From an uncultured Gammaproteobacteria bacterium (GTDB lineage: Bacteria > Patescibacteriota > Patescibacteriia > SBBC01 > JACPUP01), in contig CAYWEH010000002.1 in the NCBI GenBank assembly GCA_964457305.1, forward strand, positions 1 through 63,737: a stretch of 63,737 nucleotides of DNA, written 5' to 3'. Below are positions 2,993 through 53,368 of this stretch, one piece after another. Position 1 is the first letter of the stretch. Each line of letters starts with the position of its first letter. Below the pieces are notes generated by a model, which saw only the letters and a program-made list of their open reading frames with translations, had not been told where the DNA came from and did not search any database. The position numbers and the translations under genes are program-made.

Positions 2993-3086
2993 AAACCCCG
3001 ACGCGGAAGCGACTGGCGCAGCCGGTCTTTTACGGCTATACTGATTTTTCCTATCCATAACGTCCCTTTCCAGGACAGGAGGCACC

Positions 3087-3461
3087 ATGCTCAAACAAAC
3101 AACGGTCTACCCGACGATTCCGGTCACCAACCTCGACCGCGCGAAAATATTCTATCGGGATACGCTGGGCCTCGGGGTCATGATGGAGGACGCCGCCGGC
3201 GTCATGCTGGAAGCCGGTAATGGAACCGGCGTCTACCTCTACCAACGCGGCCCGTCGAAGGCTGACCACACCCTGGCGGGCTTCAAAGTCAACGACCTGG
3301 CCAGCGAGATGGCCGTCCTTAAGGAAAAGGGGATCGCGTTCGAAGAGTACGACTTGCCGGGACTCAAGACGATCAACGGGATCGCGACCATCGGCGGCCA
3401 AAAGGCAGCCTGGTTCAAAGACCCTGATGGCAACATCCTTAGCCTCACCCAGCTGAACTAA
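3087..3461 (+). CDS. VOC/glyoxalase-bleomycin resistance family protein
   Basis: 124 aa with the typical VOC N-terminus (VYPTIPVTNLDRAKIFYRDTLGL) and C-terminus (AWFKDPDGNILSL). AGGAGG sits 6 nt upstream of the ATG. Confidence 0.75.
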   Translation: MLKQTTVYPTIPVTNLDRAKIFYRDTLGLGVMMEDAAGVMLEAGNGTGVYLYQRGPSKADHTLAGFKVNDLASEMAVLKEKGIAFEEYDLPGLKTINGIATIGGQKAAWFKDPDGNILSLTQLN

Positions 3462-8209: not shown

Positions 8210-9405
8210 AACGCCGTCTCATCCTGCTCGCCTGCCTCGTCACGAGTTGGCTGCTCATCGCGCCGACCGCCTCGGCCGCGTCACGTTTTCTCATTCGCCT
8301 GCCCACCTGCGAACAAACGGTTTATAAGATCGAAAACAAAGAGAAAGTATCGCAGACGATGTCGCCCGACGAATACGACGCGAAAGCAACTGCTGACCCC
8401 ACGTTCAAGGAAACCTGGACGGTGACCGAGGTCACGACCAGCGGCGATTGCGGCGTCGACGAGTTCTTTCAGCTCTTCGCCAGCCTGGCAACGTGGGGCT
8501 TGAGCATCCTCGGCGCCGTTGCCGTCTTCTTCTTCATGTGGGGCGGCTTTACACTCCTCATCGCTGGCGGACGAAGCGAGAAGGTCGAGGAGGGAAAGAA
8601 GATCCTCAACGGCACATTCATGGGGGTAATCGTCGTCCTGACCGCCTGGATTATCGTGAACGCGTACATCATCGGTTTTGCCGGCGGCAAATCCATCTTC
8701 CCCAATTCACCTTTCACGCGCAGCGGTCTAGGCTCCACCGGTAGTCAATGTCGGGCAAGCTATCTGACAAACTATTCGCAAACCGGTTGTACCGGGAATG
8801 ACCTCCACTTCGGCTGTGCGGACCCGACCACCGGCGACGGCGCCGTGACGAAACTCCAGACGCTCCTGGCGGCAAAATGCCCGTCGGTCGGCGCCGCCGA
8901 CGGTTGCTTCGGGAGGAACACGGCCTACGCGCTCTGGGGATTTTTGGCTTCGAACGGGTACCAACCGATTCCGGAAAATTATCGTGACGTCCGCGGAAAC
9001 GCCGCCACGCTCCAACGGCTGCTCACCGACCCGACGAGCAAAGAGTGCTCCGACGCGTTCGGACTCACGCCCGTGTCCGACCCCGCCGACCCGAGCGACC
9101 AACCGGCCTCATCGGGTTGCTGCGTTCCCGCGTCCGTCGATGCGCGCGGGAGCTGCATCGCAGCCGCAACCGCCGCCGACTGCCCGGTTGGCCGCGGTAC
9201 TGTTCCCGATTACAACTTCCAATCGTTTGCCTGCAACACCTTTCCGCTCTGCACGGCTGGCTGCTGTATCAAATACCAACCGAACGGGGCGAAGACCTGC
9301 GAATCCTGCACTCGGGAGCGCTGCACGACCGCCGGGGCCGTCTGGCAGCAGGGCGCATGCACCTTCTCCACTAATCAATGTCAATCCGCAACCCTATGTT
9401 CCTAA
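8206..9405 (+). CDS. Secreted fusion protein: VirB2/TrbC-like pilin hairpin + PG-binding-like domain + Cys-rich C-terminal module
   Basis: It has a signal peptide (LLIAPTASA). A two-helix hairpin, FFQLFASLATWGLSILGAVAVFFFMWGGFTLLIAGGRSEKVEEGKKILNGTFMGVIVVLTAWIIVNAYI, matches the paralogs at 9378, 10002 and 10408. GDGAVTKLQTLLAAKC...DGCFGRNTAYALWGF resembles PG_binding_1. The last ~100 aa contain 15 Cys. Its ATG overlaps the SBP stop (ATGA). Confidence 0.65.
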   Translation: MKRRLILLACLVTSWLLIAPTASAASRFLIRLPTCEQTVYKIENKEKVSQTMSPDEYDAKATADPTFKETWTVTEVTTSGDCGVDEFFQLFASLATWGLSILGAVAVFFFMWGGFTLLIAGGRSEKVEEGKKILNGTFMGVIVVLTAWIIVNAYIIGFAGGKSIFPNSPFTRSGLGSTGSQCRASYLTNYSQTGCTGNDLHFGCADPTTGDGAVTKLQTLLAAKCPSVGAADGCFGRNTAYALWGFLASNGYQPIPENYRDVRGNAATLQRLLTDPTSKECSDAFGLTPVSDPADPSDQPASSGCCVPASVDARGSCIAAATAADCPVGRGTVPDYNFQSFACNTFPLCTAGCCIKYQPNGAKTCESCTRERCTTAGAVWQQGACTFSTNQCQSATLCS

Positions 9406-15149: not shown

Positions 15150-16422
15150 GGGCGCGGGAAGTGAGCCACCGAGGCGGCCCGGCAATGGCCAACGCGGCAA
15201 GAGTGAAAAAAGTTAAGTACGAAACGTAATTCCAGTTGAAAAAACGAGATAAAAACCAAAACGTAAACGAAAACACGGACGCAGAAATCACCAGCTGGGT
15301 AAGAGAGTTCCGCATTCGCTGTAGATAAAGTAACACGACGAGTAGAGGGCCAGCGATGGCGGCCTGAAGATAGATAATTGGGTAGTAGTCCCAAATACTC
15401 TTAATAATCCCGCTGCTGACCCTGAGATCAGAAATCCCGAACCCGGAAATCGGGTAGCTCGTCGTCAAACTGCCCGCAGGGTACCGATAGATGTCGTCAA
15501 TGAAATCCTTTGGATTCCACAAAAAAAATGGAAGGATGAAGAGCGCGGCTACTCCGGCCGCGATGAAAGTCGGTCGCCACCGACGCCAACCAACCACACC
15601 GCCGTGCCACACAGTGTACGCGACGAAGAACGGCGCGAACATCCAGGCCGACTGCTTCGATGCGCAGGCGAGTCCGAAAAGGATGGCCCCCCAGCTCCAG
15701 CGACCGCGCTGGAAGCACCAGAGCATCCCCGCCATGAAAGTAAAAACGAAAATATCATTATACCCCTGGACAAAGAACTTGATCCAGAAAGGATTCAACG
15801 CGAACAACAAACCGATAAGTAGCCGCCACTCACGACCTCGCGCGAGGCCGATAACGAAAAAAAACGAGACGATCTCCGCGAGCACGTAGACAACGCGCTG
15901 ATCGTACCAACCAGTCAGGTGATTGAGCACGTACGAGAACGGCAACGAAGCGAGAAAATGGAATGGCAAATACACATGGTGCCACCATGCCGGATTCGGA
16001 CGGATGCCGCGTGAAAACCCATCGAGGAACCCGCCAAACGGCATGGACCGGTAATCGGCACTGTACGGATTCTCCCCACGGAGAAAAAACGTGATTGCGT
16101 CTTCCGTCTGAACCGCACCATCGTGAATCCCGCGGGTCGGAACCGTCTTCGCTCGAATAGCCATTTGGTTTACTTCAAGAACGAGGAAGAACACCGAGGT
16201 AACTGCCACCATACACATCGCTCGGTAAAACCACGTTCGACCTGGTGATCCACCTTTCCAAACAAGAAGCAGCGGGACCAGGAGGATGGGACTAAATATG
16301 AACGCCCACCAGGCATGCAATAACACGAAACTCATAATAGCTAATACCGGAAAAAGGAGCGCGCTGGCCCAGGCGATTCGCCGTTCGGAAACATCGTGGG
16401 GGTTGGCGGGGTGTCCAATCAT
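15139..16422 (-). CDS. Polytopic membrane protein, GT-C-like (DUF2029/GT87-like mannosyltransferase candidate)
   Basis: 427 aa with about 10 TM segments. An early loop reads GENPYSADYRS...; NPFWIKFFVQGYNDIFVFTFMAG and LACASKQSAWMFAPFF resemble DUF2029-type enzymes. The assignment is tentative. Confidence 0.5.
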   Translation of the reverse strand: MIGHPANPHDVSERRIAWASALLFPVLAIMSFVLLHAWWAFIFSPILLVPLLLVWKGGSPGRTWFYRAMCMVAVTSVFFLVLEVNQMAIRAKTVPTRGIHDGAVQTEDAITFFLRGENPYSADYRSMPFGGFLDGFSRGIRPNPAWWHHVYLPFHFLASLPFSYVLNHLTGWYDQRVVYVLAEIVSFFFVIGLARGREWRLLIGLLFALNPFWIKFFVQGYNDIFVFTFMAGMLWCFQRGRWSWGAILFGLACASKQSAWMFAPFFVAYTVWHGGVVGWRRWRPTFIAAGVAALFILPFFLWNPKDFIDDIYRYPAGSLTTSYPISGFGISDLRVSSGIIKSIWDYYPIIYLQAAIAGPLLVVLLYLQRMRNSLTQLVISASVFSFTFWFLSRFFNWNYVSYLTFFTLAALAIAGPPRWLTSRAHGH

Positions 16423-16425
16423 GGT

Positions 16426-17067
16426 TTATCCACGCGCTGCACTGATGAGGTGGTACGTTTGCCCAAAATGCCGTTCATGGTGAAGAATGATAAATCCAGC
16501 AGTCATCAGTTCTTGCTGCAGCACCCGATCCGTAAATCCGGGCGTATGCAAATCCTGCCAGACCGCACCGCGCGAGCGCGTCCAAACCCACCACACCGCG
16601 TTGAAGATCCGCCCAGTCGGTATGGTTATCAGAAACACGCCGCCCGGCCGCAACACGCGTCGCACCTCACGCAGCAATGGGAAAACGTCAGAGAGGTGTT
16701 CGAGGACGTCGAAGGCGGTGACGAGATCGAAGTGACTCGATGGGAATGCCAACGGCTGGGTGATATCAGCGACCTCAAGGTGCAGCGTTGGACGATGCTG
16801 ACGCCCGTAGGCAATCGCGCTTTCGGAAAAATCGAGTCCAGTCACTTCCGCCCCGGTCCACGTCGCCAGGTACGACGTCAACCACCCGCTATGGCATCCG
16901 AGATCGAGAATGTGTGATGGTCTGCGGGGGAGGCGACGGAGCGCCCGCTGCAATAAACGCAACCGGCCGCGGTGCCAGAACCGTTGCCAGATGTTCGTCC
17001 GCATGCCGGTCTCATAATACTCGGCCGGCACGGCTTCATGCAGATGGTGTCGGTCCTGGCTATCCAT
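16426..17067 (-). CDS. Class I SAM-dependent methyltransferase
   Basis: Motif I ILDLGCHSGW, then GLDFSESAI...FDLVTAFDVLEHL...LRPGGVFLITIP. The start was trimmed to MDSQDRHH (17067). Confidence 0.8.
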   Translation of the reverse strand: MDSQDRHHLHEAVPAEYYETGMRTNIWQRFWHRGRLRLLQRALRRLPRRPSHILDLGCHSGWLTSYLATWTGAEVTGLDFSESAIAYGRQHRPTLHLEVADITQPLAFPSSHFDLVTAFDVLEHLSDVFPLLREVRRVLRPGGVFLITIPTGRIFNAVWWVWTRSRGAVWQDLHTPGFTDRVLQQELMTAGFIILHHERHFGQTYHLISAARG

Positions 17068-34069: not shown

Positions 34070-35161
34070 CTACTGCCGAATCGGCATGATGAGATACAGC
34101 GTCTGCTTGACCCCTTGCGGTCGGACGAGGCCGGGGTTCGCGGGGCCGCCGAATTCGAGGACCACCGATTCCGACGTCATGCTCCCCAGCCCGTCGAGGA
34201 GATACCGATAGTTGAACACGATGGACACTGGTTCGCCTGTTGTCTTGGTCGTGAGCACCTTCTCATGCTCACCCGCTTGCGTGTTGGCGGCCCGGACGGT
34301 CAACGATTTTTCGCCGTCGGACTCAAGCGTCACGTCGTAGATTCCCTGTTTGCAGAACAGGCTCGCCTGCTTGATGGCGTTCATCAGCTCCTCGCGACCG
34401 ATCTCAATCGTCGTCTGGTGTTCCTGGGGAATGATTTGCGTATAGTCAGGGTACTGCCCTTCGATCAACCGCGTCGTCATCTCGACATCGTCGTACGCGA
34501 AGAGCGCTTGGTTCTCGTCAATGGAAATCGCCACCGGTTCATCACCCAGGGTTCGGAGAACTTCCTGCAACGTCCGGCTGGGGAGAATGATGCGCGCGTC
34601 TTTCGCGGTCGTCGGGAGCCCCACCCGCTGTTCCGCCAGACGGTACGAGTCGGTGGCAGCCAGGGTCAGGGTCTTGTCGTGGACCACCAACAGCACCCCA
34701 CTAATCTCCGGCCGCGCTTCATCGGCCGCCGCAGCGAAGATCACCCGGGCGATGGCGCTTCGGAGGGCTGGGCCGGGAACGGTAAACGTGTTATCACGTT
34801 TGACTTGGGGAATGAGGGGAAATTCTTCCGCGGGGATGCCGCGGATGGTTGTTTTCGCGCCCGGGGCTGTTATCTTCAACGCTTTGTCGTCCAGAACAAC
34901 GTCAATGCGGTCTTTCGGCAACAAGCCGATATAATCGCTGAACAGTTTTCCGTTCACGGTGAAGCCGCCTTCGGATTCCACTTTCCCACGCAGTAAACAA
35001 CTTACGCCGATTTCCAGATTCGTCGCCGTCAGGCGGATGCTCCCACGCTCTGCGCGAATAAGAACATTGTTCAGGATGGGCAGTGAGATGTTTTTCGTCG
35101 CCAAGTGACTGACGGTTGTTAAGCCGCGATGAAGGTTTTCTTGTGTGCATGAGAATTGCAT
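34070..35161 (-). CDS. dnaN: DNA polymerase III beta sliding clamp
   Basis: MQFSCTQENLHRGLTTVSHLATKNISLPILNNVLIRAERGSIRLTATNLEIG. The length and three-domain pattern fit. It lies downstream of dnaA. Confidence 0.92.
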   Translation of the reverse strand: MQFSCTQENLHRGLTTVSHLATKNISLPILNNVLIRAERGSIRLTATNLEIGVSCLLRGKVESEGGFTVNGKLFSDYIGLLPKDRIDVVLDDKALKITAPGAKTTIRGIPAEEFPLIPQVKRDNTFTVPGPALRSAIARVIFAAAADEARPEISGVLLVVHDKTLTLAATDSYRLAEQRVGLPTTAKDARIILPSRTLQEVLRTLGDEPVAISIDENQALFAYDDVEMTTRLIEGQYPDYTQIIPQEHQTTIEIGREELMNAIKQASLFCKQGIYDVTLESDGEKSLTVRAANTQAGEHEKVLTTKTTGEPVSIVFNYRYLLDGLGSMTSESVVLEFGGPANPGLVRPQGVKQTLYLIMPIRQ

Positions 35162-35377
35162 AGCGTTCTTAATCAATACCACGTAGTACTAGTAGGGGGC
35201 TGTGGGTTTGGGGAGTGGCGTTAACCGCTCAATATTTATAAGCCCTTTTCGTATTGGGGGGTGTGGAAAAGGTGTGTGGACGAATGTTAAGGAAACGGGG
35301 AATGTTCTAAAAACCCCTTAAAATATGGGGAAAAACGGCTTGGGTGCCCCAGCGGCTGTCCACAAGGAATCCACACG
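35162..35377. promoter_or_regulatory. dnaA-dnaN intergenic region with DnaA-box-like 9-mers and AT-rich stretch (oriC candidate)
   Basis: tgtggaaaa (35262, 8/9 to TGTGGATAA), tgtggacga (35275, 7/9), ctgtccaca (35356, 7/9 to TTATCCACA) and gaatccaca (35367, 7/9). AT-rich segments aatatttataag and cttaaaatatgggg are also present. Confidence 0.5.
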
Positions 35378-36727
35378 CTAATGAACATACAGACGCTGCT
35401 TGATGAAGTGGATGTCTTGTTTCAGTTTCTCATCCTTTTCAACCTCGCCAGCGATTTTCGTGCAGGCGTGCATGGCGGTGGTGTGGTCGCGGCCACCAAG
35501 CTCTTGCCCAATGGCGGGGAAGGAACTGCGGAGCTCTTCACGGAGGAGGTACATGGCGATTTGTCTGGGCGTCACCAATCCCTTTTTCCGGCTGTTGCCC
35601 ACCAGATCCTCGATCGAGACGTCGTAGAAGCCCGCGACCGTTGAGACGAGTTGCTTCGGCGTGAGACCGCTCTTCTTCCCCTCGCCCGAGACGGACGAGA
35701 GGAGCGCCTTCACGTTGTCCAAAGAGAGCGGGGCCTGATTGAGTTGGTGGTACGCAATCAGCCGATTGAGCACCCCCTCCAACTCGCGAATATTGGAATG
35801 GCTGCTGGAGGCGATGTAGTGGATGATTTCACGGCCAAGCGGGAAGCCGCGTTCTTGACACTTCGCTTCAAGGATGGCGATGCGCGTTTCGAGGTCGGGC
35901 GCACCAATATCCGCGATCATCCCCCACTCAAAACGGGAAATCAGCCTCTCTTCCAAGGTGGGAATGGATTTGGGCGGGCGGTCTGAAGTTATGACAATCT
36001 GTTTTTTTGTGCCATGCAGGGCGTTGAAGGTATGGAAGAACTCCTCTTGGGTGCCCTCCTTCCCGGCGAGGAAGGCAATGTCGTCGACGAGGAGGAGGTC
36101 AACGGTGCGGTAGGTATTTTTGAATTCCGTCGACTTTCCCCCCTTTACCGACTGGATGAAATCGTTCGTGAATTGCTCGCAGCTGACGTATAAGACCCGT
36201 GCGTTCGGGCTTCGTTTCAGGAGGGAGTTTCCGACCGCTTGGAGAAGGTGGGTCTTCCCTAAACCAGAGGCGCCGTAGATGAAGAGCGGGTTGTAGACTT
36301 CACCTGGACGTTCGGCGACGGCAACGCAGGCAGCCCGGGCCAGTTCGTTGCCTTTCCCGACGACGAATGTTTCGAACAGGTAGCGCGGGTTGAGGCTAGA
36401 CGGCGAACCACTCGCCGCCTCGACGCGACGCGATGGACGTACCGAATCAATCGGCCGGCTCGTCGGCGGGGGGCGGGCAATCGACTCGACGCTGTAGATG
36501 ACCGTCGTGATTTCCTTCTTGGTGATATTCCCGAGCGCCTGGGTGATCGACTGGTGGTATTTTTTTTCCAGCCAAGCCCTGGTAAAGGCATTGGGAACGC
36601 CAACAATGACCTGCTGGCCCTCGCGGCTGGCGATGAACGTATTCCGGAACCACGTCGTAAAATTCGCTCTTGAGAGCGTTAGTTCAAGTTCACCGAGAAC
36701 CGCCTTCCAGAGTTCGTCGTTCGACAT
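35378..36727 (-). CDS. dnaA: Chromosomal replication initiator protein DnaA
   Basis: Walker A GASGLGKTHLL, LLVDDIAFLAGKEGTQEEFFHTFN, and domain IV GGRDHTTAMHA. The start was trimmed to MSNDELWKAVL (36727). Confidence 0.95.
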   Translation of the reverse strand: MSNDELWKAVLGELELTLSRANFTTWFRNTFIASREGQQVIVGVPNAFTRAWLEKKYHQSITQALGNITKKEITTVIYSVESIARPPPTSRPIDSVRPSRRVEAASGSPSSLNPRYLFETFVVGKGNELARAACVAVAERPGEVYNPLFIYGASGLGKTHLLQAVGNSLLKRSPNARVLYVSCEQFTNDFIQSVKGGKSTEFKNTYRTVDLLLVDDIAFLAGKEGTQEEFFHTFNALHGTKKQIVITSDRPPKSIPTLEERLISRFEWGMIADIGAPDLETRIAILEAKCQERGFPLGREIIHYIASSSHSNIRELEGVLNRLIAYHQLNQAPLSLDNVKALLSSVSGEGKKSGLTPKQLVSTVAGFYDVSIEDLVGNSRKKGLVTPRQIAMYLLREELRSSFPAIGQELGGRDHTTAMHACTKIAGEVEKDEKLKQDIHFIKQRLYVH

Positions 36728-36902
36728 AAAATCCCACGCGGAAGCACTATACCACAGGGTAAACTCCCATAAAAGGGAGAAAAGTGGACAGCGTGTGGAG
36801 AAGGTGTGGAGGGACTGGGCGTAAGGGGAGCCCTCATTGACCAGAGGGATATTCGTTGATAGCATAGGGTGGCTTTTCCGAGCTGTTTTTCGGAGATCGT
36901 GT
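36728..36902. promoter_or_regulatory. rpmH-dnaA divergent intergenic region with DnaA-box-like motifs (alternative oriC / dnaA autoregulation site)
   Basis: tgtggagaa (36794, 8/9), tgtggaggg (36806) and agtggacag (36783). The region must contain both divergent promoters. Confidence 0.4.
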
Positions 36903-37046
36903 ATGCCAAAACGAACCTACCAACCCAAGAAACGCCGCCGCAGCCGGGTCCATGGATTCCGGCGACGGATGCGGACGAGCAGCGGCCGCCGGGTGCTCCG
37001 GGCCCGCCGTCGGAAGGGCCGGAAGCGGCTAACGGTGCGGACGTAA
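36903..37046 (+). CDS. rpmH: 50S ribosomal protein L34
   Basis: [45 protein letters not shown] is canonical L34. Confidence 0.95.
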
Positions 37047-37051
37047 AACAC

Positions 37052-37390
37052 ATGCTTGCCCGGCGCCAGCGTCTCCGCCGCCACCGCGACATTACGGCGG
37101 TTGCCCGGAGAGGGAGAGCGTTTGCCGGGCGGTTGCTGGTTCTTCAGGCGCTCGCCTCGCCTGGCCAACCGACGCGATTCGTTGTAGTGGTCAGTAAACA
37201 GGTGGCCAAGCGGGCGGTGGTTCGCAACCGCGTGAAACGGCAGCTCCGGGCCAGCCTGGCCCGCCTGGCCCCAACCATCCCCCCCGGGGTATCCTTATTG
37301 GTGCGCGTGCGGGCGGCAGCGCTCGGTCAACCAACCATCACCCTTCACCAGGAAGTCCAACACCTGCTCAAACGCAGCCGCATCCTATGA
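37052..37390 (+). CDS. rnpA: Ribonuclease P protein component
   Basis: It follows rpmH. The sequence MLARRQRLRRHRDITAVARRG...VVVSKQVAKRAVVRNRVKRQLR contains the RNR-like motif. Confidence 0.85.
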   Translation: MLARRQRLRRHRDITAVARRGRAFAGRLLVLQALASPGQPTRFVVVVSKQVAKRAVVRNRVKRQLRASLARLAPTIPPGVSLLVRVRAAALGQPTITLHQEVQHLLKRSRIL

Positions 37391-37641
37391 ACGTCCTCCT
37401 CGCTTCCCTGATCAGCCTCTACCAACGGACACTGTCCCCGGACCATGGCTGGTTCCGCGCTCGATATCCGTCCGGCTTCTGCCGATTCTACCCGACGTGT
37501 TCGGAGTATGCGCGCCAGGCGTTCCTGACGCACGGTCTGTTCTTCGGGCTCTCGCTTGCTTTCCGTCGGGTCCTTCGCTGCCACCCCTGGTCGGCCGGCG
37601 GGGTTGACCCAGTCCCGCACCGGGGAAGCCCCCATGTTTGA
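37387..37641 (+). CDS. yidD: Membrane protein insertion efficiency factor YidD
   Basis: LISLYQRTLSP...CRFYPTCSEYARQAF...RRVLRCHPW. Confidence 0.88.
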   Translation: MNVLLASLISLYQRTLSPDHGWFRARYPSGFCRFYPTCSEYARQAFLTHGLFFGLSLAFRRVLRCHPWSAGGVDPVPHRGSPHV

Positions 37642-38425
37642 CACCCTACTCTACCAACCGTTCCTCAACACCCTGATCTACCTCTACGATCGGCTGGGGC
37701 ATAACCTCGGGGTCGCCATTATTGTTTTTACCGTCATCATCAAACTGATTCTCGCCTGGCCATCGGAGAGTTTCATCAAATCACAGCGGAAGATCCAAGC
37801 GCTCCAGCCGAAACTCAAGGTGCTCAAGGAACAGTTCAAGAACAACCGGGAGGCTCTGGCCAAGGCCACCATGGGTCTCTACAAGTCGAGTAAGGTGAAC
37901 CCTTTTTCCTCGTGTTTGCCAACGCTCATCCAAATCCCCATCCTGTACGCTCTCTACCGCGTTTTCCTCGACGGGATGCGGACCGACCCAACCAGCCACC
38001 TCCTCATGCCCAAGCAGCTTGCCTTCTTGTACCCGTCGCTCCAGGGGACGTACGCGCAGACCCCGATTGATACGATGTTCTTCCCCGGCTTTGACCTGGC
38101 CCGGACCGGCGTCTTCGTCGGGAGCGTGGTGGTGGCGTTGGTGGCCGCTGCCCTTCAGTACTGGCAGTCGAAGATGCTTCTCCCAGCCGAAACACCGAAG
38201 GTGGCCGGGGCACAGGACGAGCGTCTGGCGGCTCTGACCTCGAAGCAGATGACCTATCTCTTCCCGGTCATCACGGCAATTTTTATCATCGGTCTGCCGA
38301 TCGGCCTCGGGCTCTACTGGCTCGTCTCCATCGGCTTCACCGTGCTGCAGCAGTATCTTGTGCTGGCGCAGCTGAAGCGCCAGGAGGCGAAAGGGAATGA
38401 AGCTCACCATCAGCCAACTGCATAA
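37634..38425 (+). CDS. yidC: Membrane protein insertase YidC (short, Gram-positive/CPR type)
   Basis: GVAIIVFTVIIKLILAWPS...KIQALQPKLKVLKEQFKNNREALAKATMGLYKSSKVNPFSSCLPTLIQIPILYALY. The start is the ATG at 37634. Confidence 0.88.
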   Translation: MFDTLLYQPFLNTLIYLYDRLGHNLGVAIIVFTVIIKLILAWPSESFIKSQRKIQALQPKLKVLKEQFKNNREALAKATMGLYKSSKVNPFSSCLPTLIQIPILYALYRVFLDGMRTDPTSHLLMPKQLAFLYPSLQGTYAQTPIDTMFFPGFDLARTGVFVGSVVVALVAAALQYWQSKMLLPAETPKVAGAQDERLAALTSKQMTYLFPVITAIFIIGLPIGLGLYWLVSIGFTVLQQYLVLAQLKRQEAKGNEAHHQPTA

Positions 38426-38678: not shown

Positions 38679-39135
38679 GCCACCGCGCAACGGTCGGCGG
38701 CAGTCGGATAGCTCGGCGTCTGCGGCCGCGAATGGAACAGCGAAGAAGCTGGAGCCCTTTCGGCCTGGTCGCCAGCCGGTCGGCCCACTCAATGACGGAA
38801 ATGGTGTCGGGGCGGCCGATCTTCTCGGCCAACCCGGTTTCGTGGAGATCGGTTGCCGGCGGCAGGCGGTAGAGATCGGCGTGCATCACTCGGCGGACGC
38901 CCCCGCGGCGCACCGGCATTTCTTTGACCAACACAAACGTCGGGCTCGTCGTTCCGGCGATCCCAAACCAAGCCAGGAGCCCTTTGGTGAGCGTTGTTTT
39001 ACCACTGCCCAAGCTGCCGACCAGGCCGAACACCGCACCACCGGGGGCGGCGCGGCCCAGGGCGCGGCCCAGGGCAACGGTCTCCCGCGGACTGTGACAG
39101 ATGATTGTCCGAGTTCTTGACAGCGAAGACATCAT
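38590..39135 (-). CDS. tsaE: tRNA t6A37 biosynthesis ATPase TsaE, with Arg-rich C-terminal extension
   Basis: ETVALGRALG...GLVGSLGSGKTTLTKGL...SPTFVLV...HADLYRL...IEWADRL. The last ~45 aa (RGRRRRAIRLPP...RRRRHPRR) are an atypical extension that overlaps the convergent PRC-barrel gene. Confidence 0.78.
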   Translation of the reverse strand: MMSSLSRTRTIICHSPRETVALGRALGRAAPGGAVFGLVGSLGSGKTTLTKGLLAWFGIAGTTSPTFVLVKEMPVRRGGVRRVMHADLYRLPPATDLHETGLAEKIGRPDTISVIEWADRLATRPKGLQLLRCSIRGRRRRAIRLPPTVARWLTRTPARRVRVAAAGSRRRRHPRRSAWSA

Positions 39136-46118: not shown

Positions 46119-48521
46119 TCAGCGCGTCTGCTGGTTTGAGCTGAGGATGGTTCGCGGAGAAACCCGTGGCGCAAGGGCGGGCCTTCGGCGCGCCACCAGC
46201 ACCGGCTTCCACACCCTGGCGCAGGCGCGCTTTACCCGGCGGATCGGGCGACCGGTCCGCTGGCTCTTCGAGGTGACCGTGACCTTGCGGCAGACGCGAA
46301 CGAGGCGGGTCTTGCGCGCCGAGGTAACCCTCTTGGTCGGCGCACTCGCCTGCGGTGTGTTGGGGGCCGGCGGGACCGCCCGGAGGTCGGTGACCGGCGC
46401 TGGGGACGTGCCATCGCATGGTTGGACCGTAATGGACTGCGGGGGCTGTTCGCCGCACTGATTGCGGTCGGTACAGGTGCGGCTCTGGAGGGTGCCGTTG
46501 CACTCGCCCCATGGCCCACACTGCCAGTCTGGGACGCAGCTGCACGCCTGGGATTCGGCTGGTCGGCCATCGTTCACCCCGCAGTTATTTTGGTCGGTGC
46601 AGGCGCGGGCTTGCGTTCCGTTTGTGCATTGGCCCCACTCCGTGCACTGCCACAGGGGCGTGCAGGGGTTTGTGCAGGATTGCGTGAGGGGCGGCCGCAG
46701 GGTCGTCGTGCCGCAGCTGTTCAAGTCCGTGCAGGCGCGGGACTGCTGGTCGTTCACGCAGGCGCTCCATGCACCGCAGGACCAGTTTTCCTGACAGACG
46801 CAGCTCTGGGACTCCGCGGGCCGGCCGTTGTTTGTTCCGCAGCTGTTTTGATCCGTGCAGGTGCGGGTTTGCGTGCCCCCGCTGCACTGGCCCCAGTCCG
46901 TGCAGCGCCAGTCCGGGGTGCAGGGCGGCGGTGTTGTGCCTTGGGCCAGGAACAGGAGGGCCTGGCCGTTGCGGAGCCTCGCCTCGGTCGTTGTGGTGGT
47001 ACCAGTGTTCCCGTCCACGTCGAGCGGGAAATACGATCCGGGCAAGGTCACCGTGACCTCAGTCGCCGCGTCGAACTCCTGATCCCAGTTCCCGCGTACC
47101 CGGGCGACGGACAGACCGCAGGCGAAGCGTCGGCTGTAGACGGTGTAGGCGTAGCCGCGACCGTCCGTGCCGGTCGTCAAAACCTGCGGGTCTTCGAGGG
47201 GCTGGCCGAGGTCCGTGTCGAACAGGCCGCGCATGTTGTTGTCCCAGGCTGCCTGGCTGACGATGTTGACGAAGCCCCAGGTCAGGACGTTCGGCCGGCG
47301 CGTCAGCCAATGGAGGCCGAGGTTGTTCATCATGGCCTCATCGGCCGTGAACGATCCTTGTCGGCCAAAGATAGAGGTGATGTTCAAGGGGAACTCCCAC
47401 ACATCAATGCCGACTGCCTGCGCCAAGCCGTTCTTATCAAAAATCGTTGCCGGGAGCGTTTGTCCGTACGCGCGCGTCGGATTATGAGCGAATTCATTGA
47501 GGAGAACGTCGCCCGGGTGAAAGTTTACGTACCCCTGCTCCCACTGCGAATCGGTAACTCTCGGGTAGTCGGCGATGTTGGGCACGATCCAGACCCGCCT
47601 GCCATCCGGGTGTTCGGGCGGGTTCGTTCGCAACTCCTGCTCGAACCGGCCGAAACCCTGGTTGTAGTACCAGTCGAGGAAGGTGTTGGTGCTGACGCTG
47701 GGAGTGCCCGGGGCTTCGGCGACCTGTCCGCCGCTCTGAACGTTCGTTTGGAGATACCGCAGTGAGGCGTTGTCGAACATGAATCCGTCCCAGTACTGGT
47801 TCCCACCGCCCCGGATGACTTGGGTGAGGAGGTAGACGTGATAGGCGCGTTGCAGGGCGCGGAGCTCGGTAGTATGAAACGCGGGGACACGGCGGGAAAG
47901 ATCCGAGTAGTAGACTGCCACGCGCGCCTGACTCCGTGACGTGGCGGTGGCCGGCGGTGTACAGTTTGGGGAACAGGAGGGATTCCAGCCTGGTATGGTG
48001 ACATTGATTCCGTCTAATCTGGACACCGTGTCCTGCGAGTAGTGCAGGTAGACGTCCTCCGGGTCAGTCACCCCATACGTCGTTGCGTTTGCCATCAGCC
48101 AGTTGTGTTCGTCGACAGCGCCACGCGAGATGTAGTTGTCCGTAATCGAGTTGTAGTTCACGAACCGGAAGTTCGGGTTGCGCTGGCGGATGGAGGCGGC
48201 TTCATCGCCAAAGGCCTCGGCGGCCAGCTCGAAATGGTCAGCAATATAGTTTAAGCGAGTGGTGTTCGCGGCTCGGGCATACATAGTCAAGGCTCGCCGC
48301 AGCGGATTGGGAAAGCCGGTGCAGGTAAAAGCCGCCTTGGCCGTTGGGGTCGCGCTCGACAACCTCTCGGGGCTGATGGCATGGAACATCATCCCTGCGA
48401 TAAGGGCCACACCAGCCACAGCAAAAGTGCCGAGGACTACTCGACGCTGCCAGCCCCCCCAACGAATTTGTGATCGATGGTCCTGGTCAGGGTTGATCAT
48501 TACGTCTCTATAATAACACAT
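46119..48521 (-). CDS. Signal-anchored secreted protein: ~480-aa unassigned (possibly glycoside-hydrolase-like) domain + 4 Cys-rich TSP1-like repeats + basic tail
   Basis: 800 aa with an N-terminal TM (VVLGTFAVAGVALIAGMMF). The central domain carries YWDGFMFDN and VWIVPNIADYP. There are four ~43-aa repeats of the form C-x2-W-x-C-x2-W-x2-C-x4-Q-x-R-x-C-TD-x-N-x-CG, and the last ~70 aa are Arg/Lys-rich. Confidence 0.7.
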   Translation of the reverse strand: MCYYRDVMINPDQDHRSQIRWGGWQRRVVLGTFAVAGVALIAGMMFHAISPERLSSATPTAKAAFTCTGFPNPLRRALTMYARAANTTRLNYIADHFELAAEAFGDEAASIRQRNPNFRFVNYNSITDNYISRGAVDEHNWLMANATTYGVTDPEDVYLHYSQDTVSRLDGINVTIPGWNPSCSPNCTPPATATSRSQARVAVYYSDLSRRVPAFHTTELRALQRAYHVYLLTQVIRGGGNQYWDGFMFDNASLRYLQTNVQSGGQVAEAPGTPSVSTNTFLDWYYNQGFGRFEQELRTNPPEHPDGRRVWIVPNIADYPRVTDSQWEQGYVNFHPGDVLLNEFAHNPTRAYGQTLPATIFDKNGLAQAVGIDVWEFPLNITSIFGRQGSFTADEAMMNNLGLHWLTRRPNVLTWGFVNIVSQAAWDNNMRGLFDTDLGQPLEDPQVLTTGTDGRGYAYTVYSRRFACGLSVARVRGNWDQEFDAATEVTVTLPGSYFPLDVDGNTGTTTTTEARLRNGQALLFLAQGTTPPPCTPDWRCTDWGQCSGGTQTRTCTDQNSCGTNNGRPAESQSCVCQENWSCGAWSACVNDQQSRACTDLNSCGTTTLRPPLTQSCTNPCTPLWQCTEWGQCTNGTQARACTDQNNCGVNDGRPAESQACSCVPDWQCGPWGECNGTLQSRTCTDRNQCGEQPPQSITVQPCDGTSPAPVTDLRAVPPAPNTPQASAPTKRVTSARKTRLVRVCRKVTVTSKSQRTGRPIRRVKRACARVWKPVLVARRRPALAPRVSPRTILSSNQQTR
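46410..46922 (-). repeat. Four tandem coding repeats (~126-132 nt each) of a 6-Cys, 2-Trp module
   Basis: CTPDWRCTDWGQCSGGTQTRTCTDQNSCG / CQENWSCGAWSACVNDQQSRACTDLNSCG / CTPLWQCTEWGQCTNGTQARACTDQNNCG / CVPDWQCGPWGECNGTLQSRTCTDRNQCG. Confidence 0.85.
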
Positions 48522-48588
48522 CGGGAGGAAAATTTCAATTGGTCTCGTCCACGACGAGCCCGATGCGTAGCCGGTTTACGTCCTCGGC

Positions 48589-48623
48589 ACGAGCTCCCAG
48601 TTCGGGTCGGCGCTGACGCAGCG
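48589..48623. repeat. Direct repeat copy A: relic of the tsaD 3' end (att-like)
   Basis: acgagCtcccagttcgggtcggcg... differs at one position over 24 nt from 49688-49711, and 30 of 35 nt match overall. On the minus strand it reads ...SADPNWELVPRT*, compared with tsaD ...HADPNWELV*. Confidence 0.8.
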
Positions 48624-48712
48624 TGAGTCCCCTATCTTCACTCGAGGCTAAGTCCCAGAAGATTGCACGATCAATAGCCGAAACGAGATGAATAGATGTA
48701 TAGTTATTATAT

Positions 48713-49663
48713 ATGAGTGAACGAGGTTCTTCGATCGAACGGGTCGTCGGTGGGATTGACGACGAGGACAAGCAAGACATCCAGCGACAGTACAATGAAC
48801 GTTTTCGCGAACAGGCGTTCGATGACCTCTATGGACTCGAGCGAGACAAGACGCCAGAGGAGCAAAAAATCATTCAGTTTGTTGACGATGCGACCGATAC
48901 TCTCCGAAAACAGTATGGGTTGGAAGCATTTCCGGTACCGGAAAAGAACGTGCACGTCATCCCCAGGGATCACTGGAAGCCAACGACAACGGATGCCTTC
49001 TTCCTCCCGCAGCGCCAGGCGGTATTCGTACGTGAGGCGGTCGCCCCCATTGTTTTCGCTAAGAAGATCTACCACGAGTTCGTTCACTTCAAGTCCTATG
49101 GTGCAGCGCAGGTTCGAAGGGATACCGATAAGGTTGATCTCTACCGACAGGGGCTGCGGGTTTACGCTCGAGGTCAGGAGGAGCTATTCTTCCGATTGCT
49201 CAACGAAGCGGTGACCGAGGAGTTGGCGAAACGATGGCTAGGGTCGAACCAAGATGCGCCGCTGCTCGAACAGGATTCGAAAGAGACGGCACGAGTGAAG
49301 GAGTCCATTCAAAGCAAACGCAAGCACCGTACCCCCACGGGGAAGCTCGATAATATCTACTACTTGTCAGAAAAGATCACGCAGGCCGGGTCGGGGGTTG
49401 AAGTAGCAATGTGCTCAGAAGAGTTCTCAAACACCGAGGAGCGGCGGGCGCTCGGTATCCTTATAGAAAAAATCGTTGAACGCAATCCTGATCGGTTTCA
49501 GAATCGGGAGCAAGCGTTCGCTATGTTCGCACAGGCGATGCTTGACGGGAATCTCCTATCGCTTGGGAAGACAATCGATCAAACGTTCGGCCAGGGTACG
49601 TTCAGGGCGATTGGTGAAGCGCGTGATGGGCAAACACTCAGCGAGTTAGCAGACAGACTATAA
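48713..49663 (+). CDS. Hypothetical cytosolic protein with gluzincin-like HExxH ... NEAxxE motifs
   Basis: 316 aa. It contains YHEFVHF, with LLNEAVTEEL 38 aa downstream. It has no signal peptide. The G+C content is visibly lower than in the flanking sequence. Confidence 0.6.
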   Translation: MSERGSSIERVVGGIDDEDKQDIQRQYNERFREQAFDDLYGLERDKTPEEQKIIQFVDDATDTLRKQYGLEAFPVPEKNVHVIPRDHWKPTTTDAFFLPQRQAVFVREAVAPIVFAKKIYHEFVHFKSYGAAQVRRDTDKVDLYRQGLRVYARGQEELFFRLLNEAVTEELAKRWLGSNQDAPLLEQDSKETARVKESIQSKRKHRTPTGKLDNIYYLSEKITQAGSGVEVAMCSEEFSNTEERRALGILIEKIVERNPDRFQNREQAFAMFAQAMLDGNLLSLGKTIDQTFGQGTFRAIGEARDGQTLSELADRL

Positions 49664-49683
49664 TTTTTATACGAACGGAGCGC

Positions 49684-50712
49684 TCAGACGAGTTCCCAGT
49701 TCGGGTCGGCGTGAACGCGGCGCCAGCTGTGCTTGGCCGGTATTTGGTGGAATGATGCGGCCGCCGCGATCATGGCCGCATTGTCCGTGCAGTATTGGAG
49801 GGCTGGCTCGAGGTAGCGTATGCCACCCAGTCTCTCGACAGCCGTGCGCAGTTGGCGCCGAAGTTCTCCATTGGCAGCAACGCCACCAGCGAGTAAGACT
49901 GATTTCGGCCGTAGGCGTTTTGCCGCTCGGACGGTTTTACCAACAAGCACATCAACGACCGCCTGCTGGAACGACGCGCACAGGTCGGGTAGTGCTCGTT
50001 TCGGCGGGCGACTGACCCAATGTTTCTTTTGCAGAAAGTAGAGCACGCTAGTTTTTAATCCGGCAAAGCTAAAATCAGAATCAGGCGAGGCGGCCATGGG
50101 TCGGGGGAATCGAAACCGTGCGGGACTTCCCCCCACCGCCTGTTGCGAAATCTCTGGCCCCCCCGGATAGCCAAGTCCAAAGATCTTGGCGACCTTATCG
50201 AAGGCCTCCCCAGCCGCATCGTCGCGCGTTCGACCGATGAGCTTCCAAGCACCGGGTCGGGAAGCGGAAACAAGCTCGGTGTGTCCACCCGAAACAACCA
50301 AGCCGAGCACCGGAAACCGGATTCTGCGCGCCGGACGGTCGAGCCAATTCGCTGCCAAGTGTCCCTCGATGTGGTTGATGCCTAACAGTGGCACGCCGGC
50401 TGTCCACGAGAGCGTCCGGGCTGTTTCTACTCCCACCGATAAGGCTGACAAGAGCCCTGGCCCGCGTGTGACCGCGATAAGGTCAATGTTCGCCAGCGAC
50501 GTCTTTGCTTCGCGAAGCGCTAGAGTAAGTAGTGGAAGAATTGCCGGCACGTGCTCGCGGGCCGCGACTTCCGGTACCACGCCACCGTATTTTTTATGTG
50601 TCGCTATTTGCGAAGTGATGACCGACGAGCGGACGTGGAGCCCAACACGCGTCTTTTCGACGACCGCAATACCCGTTTCGTCACAGGAAGTTTCTATCCC
50701 CAAAATACGCAT
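49684..50712 (-). CDS. tsaD: tRNA N6-adenosine threonylcarbamoyltransferase TsaD
   Basis: ILGIETSCDETGIAVV, HKKYGGVVPEVAAREH, NHIEGH and GGVAAN. The start is the ATG at 50712 (or the GTG at 50727). Confidence 0.92.
   Translation of the reverse strand: MRILGIETSCDETGIAVVEKTRVGLHVRSSVITSQIATHKKYGGVVPEVAAREHVPAILPLLTLALREAKTSLANIDLIAVTRGPGLLSALSVGVETARTLSWTAGVPLLGINHIEGHLAANWLDRPARRIRFPVLGLVVSGGHTELVSASRPGAWKLIGRTRDDAAGEAFDKVAKIFGLGYPGGPEISQQAVGGSPARFRFPRPMAASPDSDFSFAGLKTSVLYFLQKKHWVSRPPKRALPDLCASFQQAVVDVLVGKTVRAAKRLRPKSVLLAGGVAANGELRRQLRTAVERLGGIRYLEPALQYCTDNAAMIAAAASFHQIPAKHSWRRVHADPNWELV
49688..49722. repeat. Direct repeat copy B (functional tsaD 3' end)
   Basis: This is the partner of 48589-48623, 1099 bp away. 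Confidence 0.8.
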
Positions 50713-50778
50713 ACGGAGTTGACGCACAGCACACTCAGGCTGGCTGGCCCGGGTGTGTTTTGTCCTAAATCGGCACCG

Positions 50779-51612
50779 CTATTTGATGAGGGAGGCGACG
50801 AGGAAGAATATAGTCGAGCCAATCGAGATTACTGCACCAAGTGCGCCGATAATGGCGAACAGGTTAAACTTGGAAAAGAATCCGGTTGGTGCCACCAATG
50901 TTTGTCCCGCTTTGAGCTGGCGGACGTTGTCGAAGAGAAGATAGGAGAAGCAGACGCCGATAACACTGACCATAGCGGCGACGATGGTCGTGACCACCTG
51001 GGTAACAATGAAGCCGAGCGGTGAGAGGAGGAAGCCAAACAGGAAGGACACGACCATGGAAACAACCGCGAGAATGAGGCCAAAGAAGAAGCTTCGCCAG
51101 AAGACATCGCTCCAGTGACCTTCAATGAGGGCTTGGGCGCGGTGCATGGATTCGCGGACCGACAGTCCTTCGCTCAAGAAGAGGTAGGGGGCGAACATGA
51201 GGGTGACCCCAACGATGATACCGGGAATGATAAAGAGAACCGAGCCGCCGAACACAACAAGAACGACGAACGCGGTGAGCAGCAAAAAACGCCAGTAGTT
51301 TTTCCGAGTCGCTTGGTAGGCACCAGCGACTGTTAATGTTTCCGGCCCTTTCAGTAACGCATTAATCACTGATTGTTGTGCCCAGAGATCGACAAAGTAG
51401 AGGAGGACGATGAGGCCCCAGAGAACGATTTTGGTCGTCGAATTACCGCCAGCCGCCAACGCAGAGAGTAGGGCGATGGCGAGTACCGGCGGCAACGCGA
51501 TGCCGAGCAGACGCTTCCAGTGCTTCATGAAGAGCATCTGCGCATCGGTCAAGAGTCGGCCGAATGATTTCATCTGTAGCCTTTGCGTGGCTGTGGTAGC
51601 CGGTGTATCCAT
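50779..51612 (-). CDS. Polytopic membrane protein, unknown function
   Basis: About 277 aa from MDTPATTATQ, with 6-7 TM segments. No catalytic motif was recognised. Confidence 0.55.
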   Translation of the reverse strand: MDTPATTATQRLQMKSFGRLLTDAQMLFMKHWKRLLGIALPPVLAIALLSALAAGGNSTTKIVLWGLIVLLYFVDLWAQQSVINALLKGPETLTVAGAYQATRKNYWRFLLLTAFVVLVVFGGSVLFIIPGIIVGVTLMFAPYLFLSEGLSVRESMHRAQALIEGHWSDVFWRSFFFGLILAVVSMVVSFLFGFLLSPLGFIVTQVVTTIVAAMVSVIGVCFSYLLFDNVRQLKAGQTLVAPTGFFSKFNLFAIIGALGAVISIGSTIFFLVASLIK

Positions 51613-51806
51613 AGTATCGAGTTTAAGGACGTTACCTTTAAGAGTACGGTTTTTTCTATTAAAAGGCAATGCGAGAAGTCGCACTCTCGATGATACGATT
51701 TGTTTATTTGCCTCGTTTTTCTAAAGAAAGAAGGCCTAGGGACGTGCGCGTTGTCCCTAGGCCCTTCGTCCATTGCGGACGGAATATGTCGAAAGGATCG
51801 GGTTGT

Positions 51807-52523
51807 TCACTTGCCGGTGAGCTCGGCCCAGTGCTGCTTCGGGCGCAGTCGCTGGGAACCCACGGCACAGAGCGGGCAGTCCTCCGGCCCCCACGTCTGG
51901 ATGTCGTAGTGGACAAGGGGGATGACATCCGAGGATCCGATTCGGGTGACGTCCGACCGGTCGACGAAGACCGCGACGACCGGGGCGAAGGTGATGGGGT
52001 GGGTATGGGCTTCCTGAATTCCCCGCCGCACCGCCTCCGTCGTGCTCGCGGCCGTCATCAACTCCTCAACCTGGAGCACGACCTCGTTCGGCGCGATGGG
52101 GAATCGCCGCCAGGCCTGGGTCTTGTCCGGACCCTTCTCGCAGAAGTCGAACTCGGCCTCGAACGTGTGCGCCGTGGCGAACCCGAGGGTGGCCGCGGCG
52201 TGGTCCGAGGAAACGACCCAATCGACGTGGCCGGAGTAGCGGTTGCGGACCGCCAGGTAGAGCTGGCGTCCGAACAGGAGACAGAGGTCGGGGTACTTCA
52301 GTACCAGGCCGACGTTCACGAAGCCGTCCGAGCAGTCGCCCGCCGTGAGTTCCGCGTGCGGCCGCGACGGATCGCCCGAGTGCAGCCAGAGCGCGTCGAG
52401 TCGCTCGAGGATATGCCGGATCTCCGCGGGCGTCAGTTGGCGATCGCCGATGTCCCTGGGACCGAGCGTCAGGAGGTTCTCCCGGTCCATGGCCAGGACA
52501 TCTTCGGGTGACAGGAGCCGCAT
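51807..52523 (-). CDS. Phosphoribosyltransferase-family protein, PyrE-like
   Basis: The PRPP-binding loop reads VVLQVEELMTAASTTEAV. HAELTAGDCSDGFVNVG parallels the PyrE HF-L-SG-HS motif. It lies directly downstream of pyrF, with a 1-nt overlap. Confidence 0.65.
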   Translation of the reverse strand: MRLLSPEDVLAMDRENLLTLGPRDIGDRQLTPAEIRHILERLDALWLHSGDPSRPHAELTAGDCSDGFVNVGLVLKYPDLCLLFGRQLYLAVRNRYSGHVDWVVSSDHAAATLGFATAHTFEAEFDFCEKGPDKTQAWRRFPIAPNEVVLQVEELMTAASTTEAVRRGIQEAHTHPITFAPVVAVFVDRSDVTRIGSSDVIPLVHYDIQTWGPEDCPLCAVGSQRLRPKQHWAELTGK

Positions 52524-53368
52524 TACTTCCTCCTCGCAGTGAGTGCCTGTTCGATCTCGTCATTGATCGCTTGCAGCGCCGCGACCGGGTCGGGCGCCTC
52601 GATGACCGGACGGCCGATGACGAGGTAGTCCGCGCCGTTGCGGATCGCCTCGGCCGGGGTGGCCACGCGCTTCTGATCGGCGACGTCGGCACCGGCCGGA
52701 CGAACGCCCGGGGTGATGATGAGGAACGTCGGACCGCAGGCATCCCGGACCAGCGCGGCCTCCTGTGGGGAAGCAACGACGGCGTCGAGACCGGCACGCT
52801 GGGCAACGCGCGCCCGCTGGACCACCAGGTCCTGGACGATGCGGCGCTTGGTCGCGGCCATATCGTCAGCGTCGCTCGCGTGCAGACCGTTGACCACGCC
52901 GACTTCGGCCAGCGTGTCGTAGTCGAGCGAGGTCAGCACGGTGATGCCGATGACGAGCGGACGGAACCCTTGTCCCCCGCCATCGATGGCGTATGCTTGC
53001 TCGGTTGCCCGGACAGCCGCCTCCAGCATCGGGGTTCCGCCATCGACGTGGACGGTGAAGCCCCAGACGGCGAGGCGGGTCACCGCGCGGGCAGCGCCCG
53101 CGACCGTGTTCGGGATGTCCTTGAATTTGCCGTCGAGGAAGACCGTTGACATGCGGCTGGTGACGAAATTCGCCGCCACCGGTCCCCCCACTGCACTGAG
53201 AAGCTCCAAGCCGATTTTGAAGCTGGCGACGTGCGGTGCAAGCTTGTAAATTAACTTGCCCGCCTCGTCGAGCGATGGCACGTCGAGCGCCACGATGACG
53301 CGTTTTTCAGACACGGAAGTCTCACTTTCGTTGGTGGTAAGAGCACGCCTGGCGGGAAGTTCCCCCAA
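52523..53368 (-). CDS. pyrF: Orotidine 5'-phosphate decarboxylase
   Basis: VIVALDV, FKIGLEL, FLDGKFKDIPNTV, PGVRP and YLVIGRPV. Confidence 0.88.
   Translation of the reverse strand: MGELPARRALTTNESETSVSEKRVIVALDVPSLDEAGKLIYKLAPHVASFKIGLELLSAVGGPVAANFVTSRMSTVFLDGKFKDIPNTVAGAARAVTRLAVWGFTVHVDGGTPMLEAAVRATEQAYAIDGGGQGFRPLVIGITVLTSLDYDTLAEVGVVNGLHASDADDMAATKRRIVQDLVVQRARVAQRAGLDAVVASPQEAALVRDACGPTFLIITPGVRPAGADVADQKRVATPAEAIRNGADYLVIGRPVIEAPDPVAALQAINDEIEQALTARRK

Follow-up and report, generated by a model that had tools for sequence, protein, structure and literature searches.

The window analysed here is a 63,737-nt stretch of DNA (contig CAYWEH010000002.1 of GenBank assembly GCA_964457305.1, positions 1 to 63,737, forward strand) from an uncultured bacterium, and named relatives of its proteins carry a Patescibacteria annotation. 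On its minus strand it encodes tsaD (49684..50712), the gene for the t6A tRNA threonylcarbamoyltransferase subunit. Beside tsaD, a gene for a protein with an HExxH motif is bracketed by two copies of the tsaD 3′ end, one in use and the other a relic. This locus was compared with its counterparts in relatives and with other loci that carry genes of the same HExxH family.

A single gene between two copies of the tsaD 3′ end

The tsaD open reading frame (ORF; 342/347 aa, with 342 aa in the public gene call) matched the Pfam TsaD profile PF00814 over its full length (E = 1.5e-88, profile positions 2-263 of 264). Its last 12 codons form one copy of the repeat, copy B (49688..49722, minus strand), which translates as ...SWRRVHADPNWELV. 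This is the working end of the gene (...RRVHADPNWELV) and, as the initial annotation had held, the true TsaD C-terminus. Copy A (48589..48623) is found in the 190 nt that separate a 316-aa gene from its 793-aa neighbour. It reads in the same orientation as tsaD and translates on the minus strand as ...SRCVSADPNWELVPRT*, in agreement with the intergenic relic described earlier. The stop codon of this copy occupies 48576-48578, and the frame is also interrupted by a stop 23 codons upstream. Together with its stop, copy A constitutes a relic of the original tsaD 3′ end (48576..48623, minus strand; ...RCVSADPNWELVPRT*) that resembles the native ends of relatives.

A search of the window with the pattern ACGAGYTCCCAGTTCGGGTCGGCG, allowing up to 3 mismatches, returned two matches, 48589-48612 and 49688-49711, both on the plus strand, and 0 of 100 dinucleotide shuffles matched. 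That the window holds just these two copies, where chance would give none, speaks against a common intergenic motif. The copies are identical at 23 of 24 core positions and at 30 of 35 positions (86%) over the extended repeat (48589-48623 and 49688-49722, spaced 1099 nt apart), so the 24-nt core and its extension to ~35 nt were recovered as first reported. An alignment of 180 nt around both copies revealed no similarity past the 35-nt repeat on either side.

Exactly one gene lies between the copies, again as proposed: the cargo gene (48713..49663, plus strand), which encodes a 316-aa HExxH ... NEAVTEE protein with the HExxH motif at H121-E-F-V-H125. It is preceded by an 89-nt leader (48624..48712, plus strand), a probable promoter that forms the left end of the insert, and a 20-nt spacer without a terminator (49664..49683) separates its stop codon from the convergent stop codon of tsaD. 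On the outer side of the relic stands a terminator-like hairpin, GGGCTCGTC-GTG-GACGAGACC (48541..48561, minus strand), that once lay 3′ of the original tsaD end and is homologous to a hairpin downstream of the native tsaD stop in the relative L090. It is followed by the gene for a 793-aa Cys-repeat secreted protein (46119..48500, minus strand), which in relatives with an empty site directly follows tsaD.

The G+C content is 53.3% for the HExxH gene and 52.1% for the segment 48624-49687, compared with a mean of 60.1% (sd 3.5) over 52 genes of the window (z = -1.9). GC3 of the HExxH gene is 0.609 versus 0.708 ± 0.067, and tsaD itself has 0.603. The compositional signal of the insert is genuine but modest: the lower G+C noted in the initial annotation is present, and two other genes of the window are as low. 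A strong compositional island was rejected, since the deviation amounts to only ~2 sd and other genes are alike.

Empty and occupied sites in relatives

A scan of 185,579 species genomes gave no TsaD above 53% identity, and relatives were therefore taken from metagenome assemblies. The resulting local clade comprises eight TsaD proteins of 72-87% identity. Judged from their gene order, two of these relatives represent empty sites. L086 (TsaD 87% identical) has the order of the window, namely OMP decarboxylase, a 237-aa gene, UPF0259, tsaD, a 782-aa gene and ValRS; it has no HExxH gene, and 46 nt lie between tsaD and the 782-aa gene. In L090 (TsaD 72%), tsaD ends in ...RRVAADPNWELVSRT (...ELVSRT) and is followed by the hairpin and then by the homologue of the 793-aa gene. 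This is the arrangement predicted for an empty site, with tsaD directly before the gene at 46-48 kb. A third relative, L081 (TsaD 83%, HExxH protein 58%), is occupied; it shares the four-gene order and has the two repeat copies at a spacing of 1088 nt.

The relics correspond to native ends of the empty relatives. The L081 relic (copy A plus left flank) is identical to the native tsaD end of L086 at 31 of 31 positions (...ADPNWEF*), and to the right of ...GACGCGG the L086 sequence runs on like the body of tsaD. The window relic (...ELVPRT*) and the 35 nt past its stop, including the hairpin, align with the native end of L090 and its hairpin, whereas the working copy B loses its similarity to L090 at its stop. 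The junction between relic and insert falls at the identical base in the window and L081 (...GCG/TGAGTCCCC versus ...GCG/GGATTCCCC, the slash marking the junction), and the left join falls inside the 31-35-nt relic or at its edge (...GACGCGG/CG).

These comparisons show that a 1,099-bp segment, consisting of the leader, the HExxH gene and a replacement tsaD 3′ end, was inserted ~12 codons before the end of tsaD. By the same alignments, copy A represents the last ~12 original tsaD codons, which with their stop and hairpin were moved 1.1 kb off as a non-functional relic. Copy B, whose equivalent in L081 differs from the native L086 end, would have arrived with the insert. The insertion polymorphism is genuine, as close relatives differ in whether they carry the insert. 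The proposal of an insertion into the tsaD 3′ end that supplied a new end is thus supported both by the empty sites and by a relic that matches the native ends of relatives.

The leader is 75-90% identical between the window and L081, far above the adjoining non-coding stretch 48500-48590, and over the leader and the first 30 codons synonymous identity is 18/25, versus ~40% in the middle of the gene. A structured RNA or riboswitch in the leader was considered and rejected: the fold z was +0.95, there were no compensatory pairs with L081, and Rfam gave no match at E ≤ 5.

A recombinant tract in tsaD

By their flanks, L081 and L086 are sisters (UPF0259 96% identical, the 800-aa N-terminal part 87%; 69-75% to the window), and they form the only near-isogenic pair of an occupied and an empty site. 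Their TsaD proteins are 86.5% identical overall, and identity falls from 95.5% in the N-terminal half to 76.5% in the C-terminal one. Next to the insert, 120 of 447 positions (26.8%) differ in the 3′ tract of tsaD, compared with a divergence of 5.6% in the 5′ part of tsaD, 5.7% in UPF0259 and 7-8% in the left flank. The maximum chi-square, 171, fell at L081 position ~2641. Inside the tract, identity to the window is ~70% for L081 and ~80% for L086; L081 is farther from the window than its sister and is therefore the recombinant. The donor of the tract would be a lineage outside the sampled relatives.

The L081 insert is accordingly contiguous with ~490 nt of foreign tsaD that extend past the 35-nt repeat, which indicates homologous recombination, not an integrase crossover in the 35-nt core. 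The terms site-specific and att-like, used for the repeats in the initial annotation, do not fit this tract. No recombination tract was detectable in the window's own tsaD when compared with L086.

Relics at the 5′ end and strain variation

In a strain variant from NCBI (L171), L081 and L086, the first ~10 codons of tsaD are present a second time in decayed form, 69-84 nt upstream of the true start MKILGIETS. These copies read MRILGLETS..., MHILGIETS... and VHILGIETS..., and a hairpin lies between the decayed copy and the true start. In the window, the 70 nt between the 5′ relic and the true start are deleted (L171 interval 11986-12055), and tsaD begins at the ATG of the relic with the chimeric start MRILGIETS (50685..50712, minus strand; junction ~50697/50698). 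A repeat-mediated deletion that returned a relic to service was therefore seen directly in this population. Relics at both ends might have been left if an incoming foreign tsaD, together with the HExxH gene, overwrote the resident tsaD of an ancestor.

The window is 99.3-99.8% identical to the strain variant (contig CAMTXR010000016.1 of GCA_947085775.1), and the mismatches, mostly at third codon positions, are gathered in patches (47859-48291, 50703-51166, 51661-52688 and 16378-16462). The 2.4-kb block 48292-50697, which holds the relic, the cassette and tsaD, shows no difference among the window, the NCBI record and the Logan contig L172; the latter spans exactly this block. This pattern is consistent with recent recombination around the locus, and a mixed-strain assembly could also produce it.

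The HExxH protein

A profile search with the 316-aa protein gave no significant match in Pfam, NCBIfam, PHROGs, PADLOC or PDB sequences. The AlphaFold2 model was confident (pLDDT 92.9, pTM 0.92), with helices at residues 112-127 and 161-178, and Foldseek found no fold match for it in PDB and BFVD (best PDB E = 0.28, TM-score 0.12-0.18). The top BFVD match, an IrrE N-terminal-like viral protein, was not significant either (E = 0.28). A known protein family as the identity of the cargo was rejected, as there was no significant sequence, profile or fold match.

Five residues, H121, E122, H125, E165 and E169, are invariant among 26 sequences in the pattern HExxH ... LNEAVTEE. An HExxH motif followed ~40 residues on by NEAxxE on the next long helix is what we take to be the signature of gluzincin peptidases. 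The cargo has the HExxH motif and the downstream Glu ligand on the following helix, and it lacks similarity to any known peptidase family by sequence or structure. Going by these motifs, it is probably a gluzincin-type hydrolase that depends on zinc.

HExxH proteases of the ImmA/IrrE type pair with XRE repressors on mobile elements. The cargo is similar to these proteases, and to gluzincins, in carrying HExxH on one helix and NEAxxE on the next ~40 residues later; the IrrE-like viral fold match, though non-significant, and the position of some family members directly after a gene of the XRE-type helix-turn-helix (HTH) class point the same way. It differs in the lack of a significant sequence or fold match, and the HExxH gene of the window has no HTH partner. 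The operon-like HTH genes are small (L107 3775-3990; L095/L097). Two further observations concern these loci: in L107 a large serine recombinase-like ORF (1819-3393, 524 aa), judged by eye from its N-terminal sequence, lies near the family member, and in L095 a ~250-nt duplication of the start of the HTH gene occurs on both sides of the HExxH gene.

Members of the HExxH family are ~310-330 residues long. Clustering at 50% identity gives 2364 clusters, of which 1007 have E ≤ 1e-30. The gene is intact wherever it was found and is under purifying selection. No homologue was present in 50,697 phages, 72,556 plasmids and IMG/VR, and a phage or plasmid origin was rejected on this basis.

Duplicated gene ends across the HExxH family

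None of 84 further family loci has tsaD nearby, and a general association of the family with tsaD was consequently rejected. Bracketing by direct repeats is nevertheless a wider property of the family, as a flanking repeat scoring ≥ 15 was found for 10 of 51 family genes with full flanks versus 0 of 59 neighbouring control genes of similar size. Clear cases are L146, where 48 nt from the 3′ end of the convergent gene are repeated, L168, with 33 nt from the 3′ end of the gene upstream, L099, with a perfect 22-nt copy of the 3′ end of tRNA-Ser(gct), and L116, with a 67-nt repeat. The spacing of the repeats is always 1.05-1.4 kb, which corresponds to one gene. A decayed island, as the initial annotation had suggested, is unlikely when the same single gene is bracketed at this spacing in at least six unrelated contexts. 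Cassettes of different contexts have no conserved non-coding ends in common and share the ORF alone.

At a second locus the relic could also be traced to a native end. The relic ...YFNN* in L168/L206 matches the native end in L212, and the working copy beside the cassette reads ...YFN*; the result obtained for tsaD is therefore repeated at an unrelated locus. L212 has the same synteny as L168 and holds a different 224-aa gene in the slot, so that a clean empty site for L168 was rejected. The slot lies between a beta-lactamase-like gene and lexA and is filled either by the HExxH gene (L206 5921-6871) or by the unrelated minus-strand gene of 224 aa (L212/L213 6007-6681). It looks like a variable hotspot.

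A tRNA gene was located no more than ~320 nt upstream of the HExxH gene at 10 of 60 scanned loci, and ~960 nt upstream at one more (L154). At 4 of these 11 tRNA-adjacent loci (L094, L098, L099, L101, L122, L128, L132, L149, L152, L154 and L158) the tRNA is tRNA-Ser. Repeats of a tRNA 3′ end as a rule at these loci were rejected, as only L099 has one. The CCA-adding enzyme and Sua5/TsaC are also recurrent neighbours, and with the tRNA genes they suggest that the family tends toward tRNA-related genes. In L174, a 523-kb contig, tandem HExxH paralogues of 330 and 319 aa (6997-8960) are located in a cell-wall synthesis cluster without a flanking repeat.

With more than 2,000 clusters, a conserved metal site, no annotation, no known fold and an unusually frequent bracketing by duplicated ends of neighbouring genes, the HExxH family is a candidate for an accessory role under strong selection, or else for a new selfish gene. 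Of more interest than the single locus are its uncharacterised fold and the repeat pattern at family level.

Search for mobility genes

Pfam annotation across the window revealed no integrase, resolvase or transposase, so the earlier remark that no integrase remains holds for the whole 63.7 kb. The window does encode RuvB, RuvC, a T2SSE-type ATPase and a pilin-like gene. Around 68 non-redundant family loci, a survey of 145 neighbouring ORFs yielded 123 different Pfam families, and integrase or recombinase families were absent among the 25 recurrent ones listed. Homing nuclease domains (LAGLIDADG, GIY-YIG, HNH, PD-(D/E)xK and others) were not found in the cargo by Pfam, NCBIfam, PHROGs, PADLOC or fold search. 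The repeat was not found as an attP-like tsaD end on any viral contig; its core had 31 viral matches, and these are internal A[DN]PNW[DE] peptides with no relation to it.

A transposon with target-site duplication was also considered and rejected: the copies differ, copy B is derived from the donor in L081, the insert ends carry no inverted repeats, and there is no transposase. The length of the repeat, 22-67 nt across loci, is likewise unlike the fixed-length duplication made by a transposon.

Proposed route of insertion and spread

We consider it fairly probable that the unit spreads by host recombination, with the relic and tsaD as homology arms, and that it has neither a recombinase of its own nor an integrase-type att site. 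The structure would have arisen once, from incoming DNA in which a foreign tsaD end, or a whole tsaD, stood beside the HExxH gene. One join may have formed through tsaD homology and the other inside the resident tsaD, so that the distal end of the resident gene was left behind as the relic. Such a founding step would resemble homology-facilitated illegitimate recombination. From then on the unit would be flanked by tsaD homology, the ~35-nt relic on one side and tsaD on the other, and homologous recombination of the host could copy it into any related genome. This spread would take the form of a double crossover in which tsaD provides one arm and the second is either the relic or the conserved 5′ end of the cassette. 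Recombination between copy A and copy B would delete the unit and make the relic a working gene end again. In L086 the cassette could have been lost later in this way, and its unusual ...NWEF* end equals the L081 relic.

The proposal is in line with what has been compiled on recombination in transformable bacteria. A minimal segment of 25-35 bp has been given for RecA-mediated exchange, about the length of the relic, and cases with homology on one side and a short join on the other are on record (PMC6382021). Homology-facilitated illegitimate recombination in transformation is attributed to de Vries & Wackernagel 2002 and Prudhomme 2002 as cited in PMC6382021. The process is known mainly from laboratory crosses of Acinetobacter, Streptococcus pneumoniae and Pseudomonas stutzeri. 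The tsaD locus is similar to it in having one anchor gene, a contiguous foreign tract, no need of a dedicated recombinase and a putative short-homology join at the other end. A donor tract in the anchor gene contiguous with the insert, as expected for homologous or homology-facilitated illegitimate recombination, was found in L081. The difference is that the process is here deduced from natural genomes of an uncultured lineage.

Several observations weigh against this proposal. The left homology arm measures just 31-35 nt, close to the minimum at which recombination is still efficient. At several unrelated loci, duplicated 3′ ends flank genes of the same family, among them the perfect 22-nt end of tRNA-Ser, and this is the classical footprint of an integrase. 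The recurrence around one gene family keeps a selfish-gene reading alive. The conservation over the leader and the first 30 codons might point to a cis-acting site, and none of the 84 further loci provided a source genome with tsaD next to the HExxH gene minus the relic. Two accounts of the direction fit the present data, a gain in L081 or a loss in L086 together with an allele replacement in L081, with at least two recombination events either way. The main counter-argument is that RecA-driven transformation in B. subtilis collapses beyond ~15% divergence (PMC6382021), and the tract described here is 27% divergent, a level at which recombination is very inefficient.

The locus is a clean natural case of the gain and loss of a single gene inside an essential gene that is left undamaged, documented by empty sites, one occupied relative and a recombination tract that could be mapped. 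The host is a streamlined uncultured bacterium without visible mobile-element machinery. A gene end that is left behind can serve as a portable homology arm, reusable once the insert has been deleted. To our knowledge, a surviving relic as a portable second homology arm has no earlier description.

Alternative explanations

Instead of host recombination, an integrase acting in trans might mobilise the cassette in the manner of a cis-mobilizable element (CIME), with the 35-nt repeats as attL and attR and a helper tyrosine recombinase that targets the tsaD 3′ end. CIMEs are elements that keep attL and attR after loss of their integration and transfer genes (PMC5704250). The likeness is considerable, as it covers the direct repeats from the 3′ end of the target (with a putative att function), the replacement end, the single gene without a recombinase domain or transfer genes inside, and the presence or absence among relatives. 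Integrases that target 3′ ends yield exactly such repeats and replacement ends; the family member behind tRNA-Ser in L099, the cassette ends that are better conserved than the middle, and the relic/insert junction shared by two genomes would all be expected as well. In a CIME, however, the exchange should be confined to the att core, and a crossover there cannot yield the foreign DNA that in L081 runs ~490 nt past the repeat (26.8% versus 5.6% divergence from L086). A cognate integrase at the same site, from an integrative and conjugative element, an integrative and mobilizable element or a prophage, was found neither in the window nor among the neighbour families listed; no viral contig has an attP with the tsaD end, and the HExxH family itself is missing from phages, plasmids and IMG/VR. 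The unit also differs from CIMEs in holding just one gene, the same at different targets, and in its range of repeat lengths. This range, the varied targets and the lack of shared non-coding ends fit a by-product of recombination better than a single dedicated recombinase, and the independent decay of larger islands to the same gene in at least six places is implausible. We therefore hold mobilisation in trans to be unlikely. That the HExxH gene mobilises itself, its product breaking DNA at conserved gene ends or acting as a new recombinase with homing-like co-conversion, seems very unlikely to us. A single-gene unit with duplicated target ends recurs at unrelated loci and is missing around control genes, the tract in L081 resembles co-conversion and occurs on the tsaD side only, and the gene is maintained by purifying selection; the invariant metal-binding motif and a confidently modelled fold with no known counterpart could leave room for an activity on nucleic acids. 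Against this, no nuclease, recombinase or DNA-binding domain was detected in the cargo by Pfam, NCBIfam, PHROGs or PADLOC, and its motifs are those of gluzincin peptidases. Moreover, 41 of the 51 family loci have no flanking repeat, the pairs with an XRE-type HTH gene fit a regulatory protease, and one cell-wall gene cluster holds tandem paralogues.

Free-standing homing endonuclease genes of phages spread by intron-less homing, and the tsaD locus is similar to these in its single gene beside a conserved gene, its presence or absence among relatives and its co-conversion tract in the conserved gene. It differs in that the cargo has no known nuclease domain, is chromosomal and absent from phage and viral collections, and leaves a duplicated gene end. 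A broader version, which we rate as quite unlikely, would make the HExxH gene the sole gene of an unrecognised mobile element of ~1.1-1.4 kb in Patescibacteria that enters the 3′ ends of conserved protein and tRNA genes and restores them with a copy of its own, its product being a metal enzyme of new fold acting on DNA. At the other extreme, there may have been no insertion at all, in which case the repeat would be an intergenic motif that is common or due to chance, or what remains of a local tandem duplication of tsaD. Similar DNA could indeed recur, because ADPNWELV is a widely conserved TsaD C-terminus, and the deviation in G+C is modest. The probability of this explanation is negligible: the empty sites in two relatives already refute it, the pattern has only its two matches in the window, the relic runs into the native downstream hairpin of a relative, and homologues of the cargo occur in entirely different contexts.

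Genomic context

Other features of the window were noted in passing. Inside the gene of the 793-aa protein, three repeats spaced by ~130 nt (46561-46872) encode Cys-rich modules (C..W..CS/N..Q.R.CTD.N.CG). At 38763-39096, the minus strand encodes a TsaE domain (PF02367, E = 8.7e-25) where the public call is a plus-strand ORF of 167 aa without a domain; the strand of the public call is probably wrong. The genes dnaN, dnaA, rnpA and yidC are clustered at 34070-38425, and the cumulative GC skew has its minimum at ~33-35 kb, at the dnaN end. The replication origin is thus probably located ~12 kb from the cassette.

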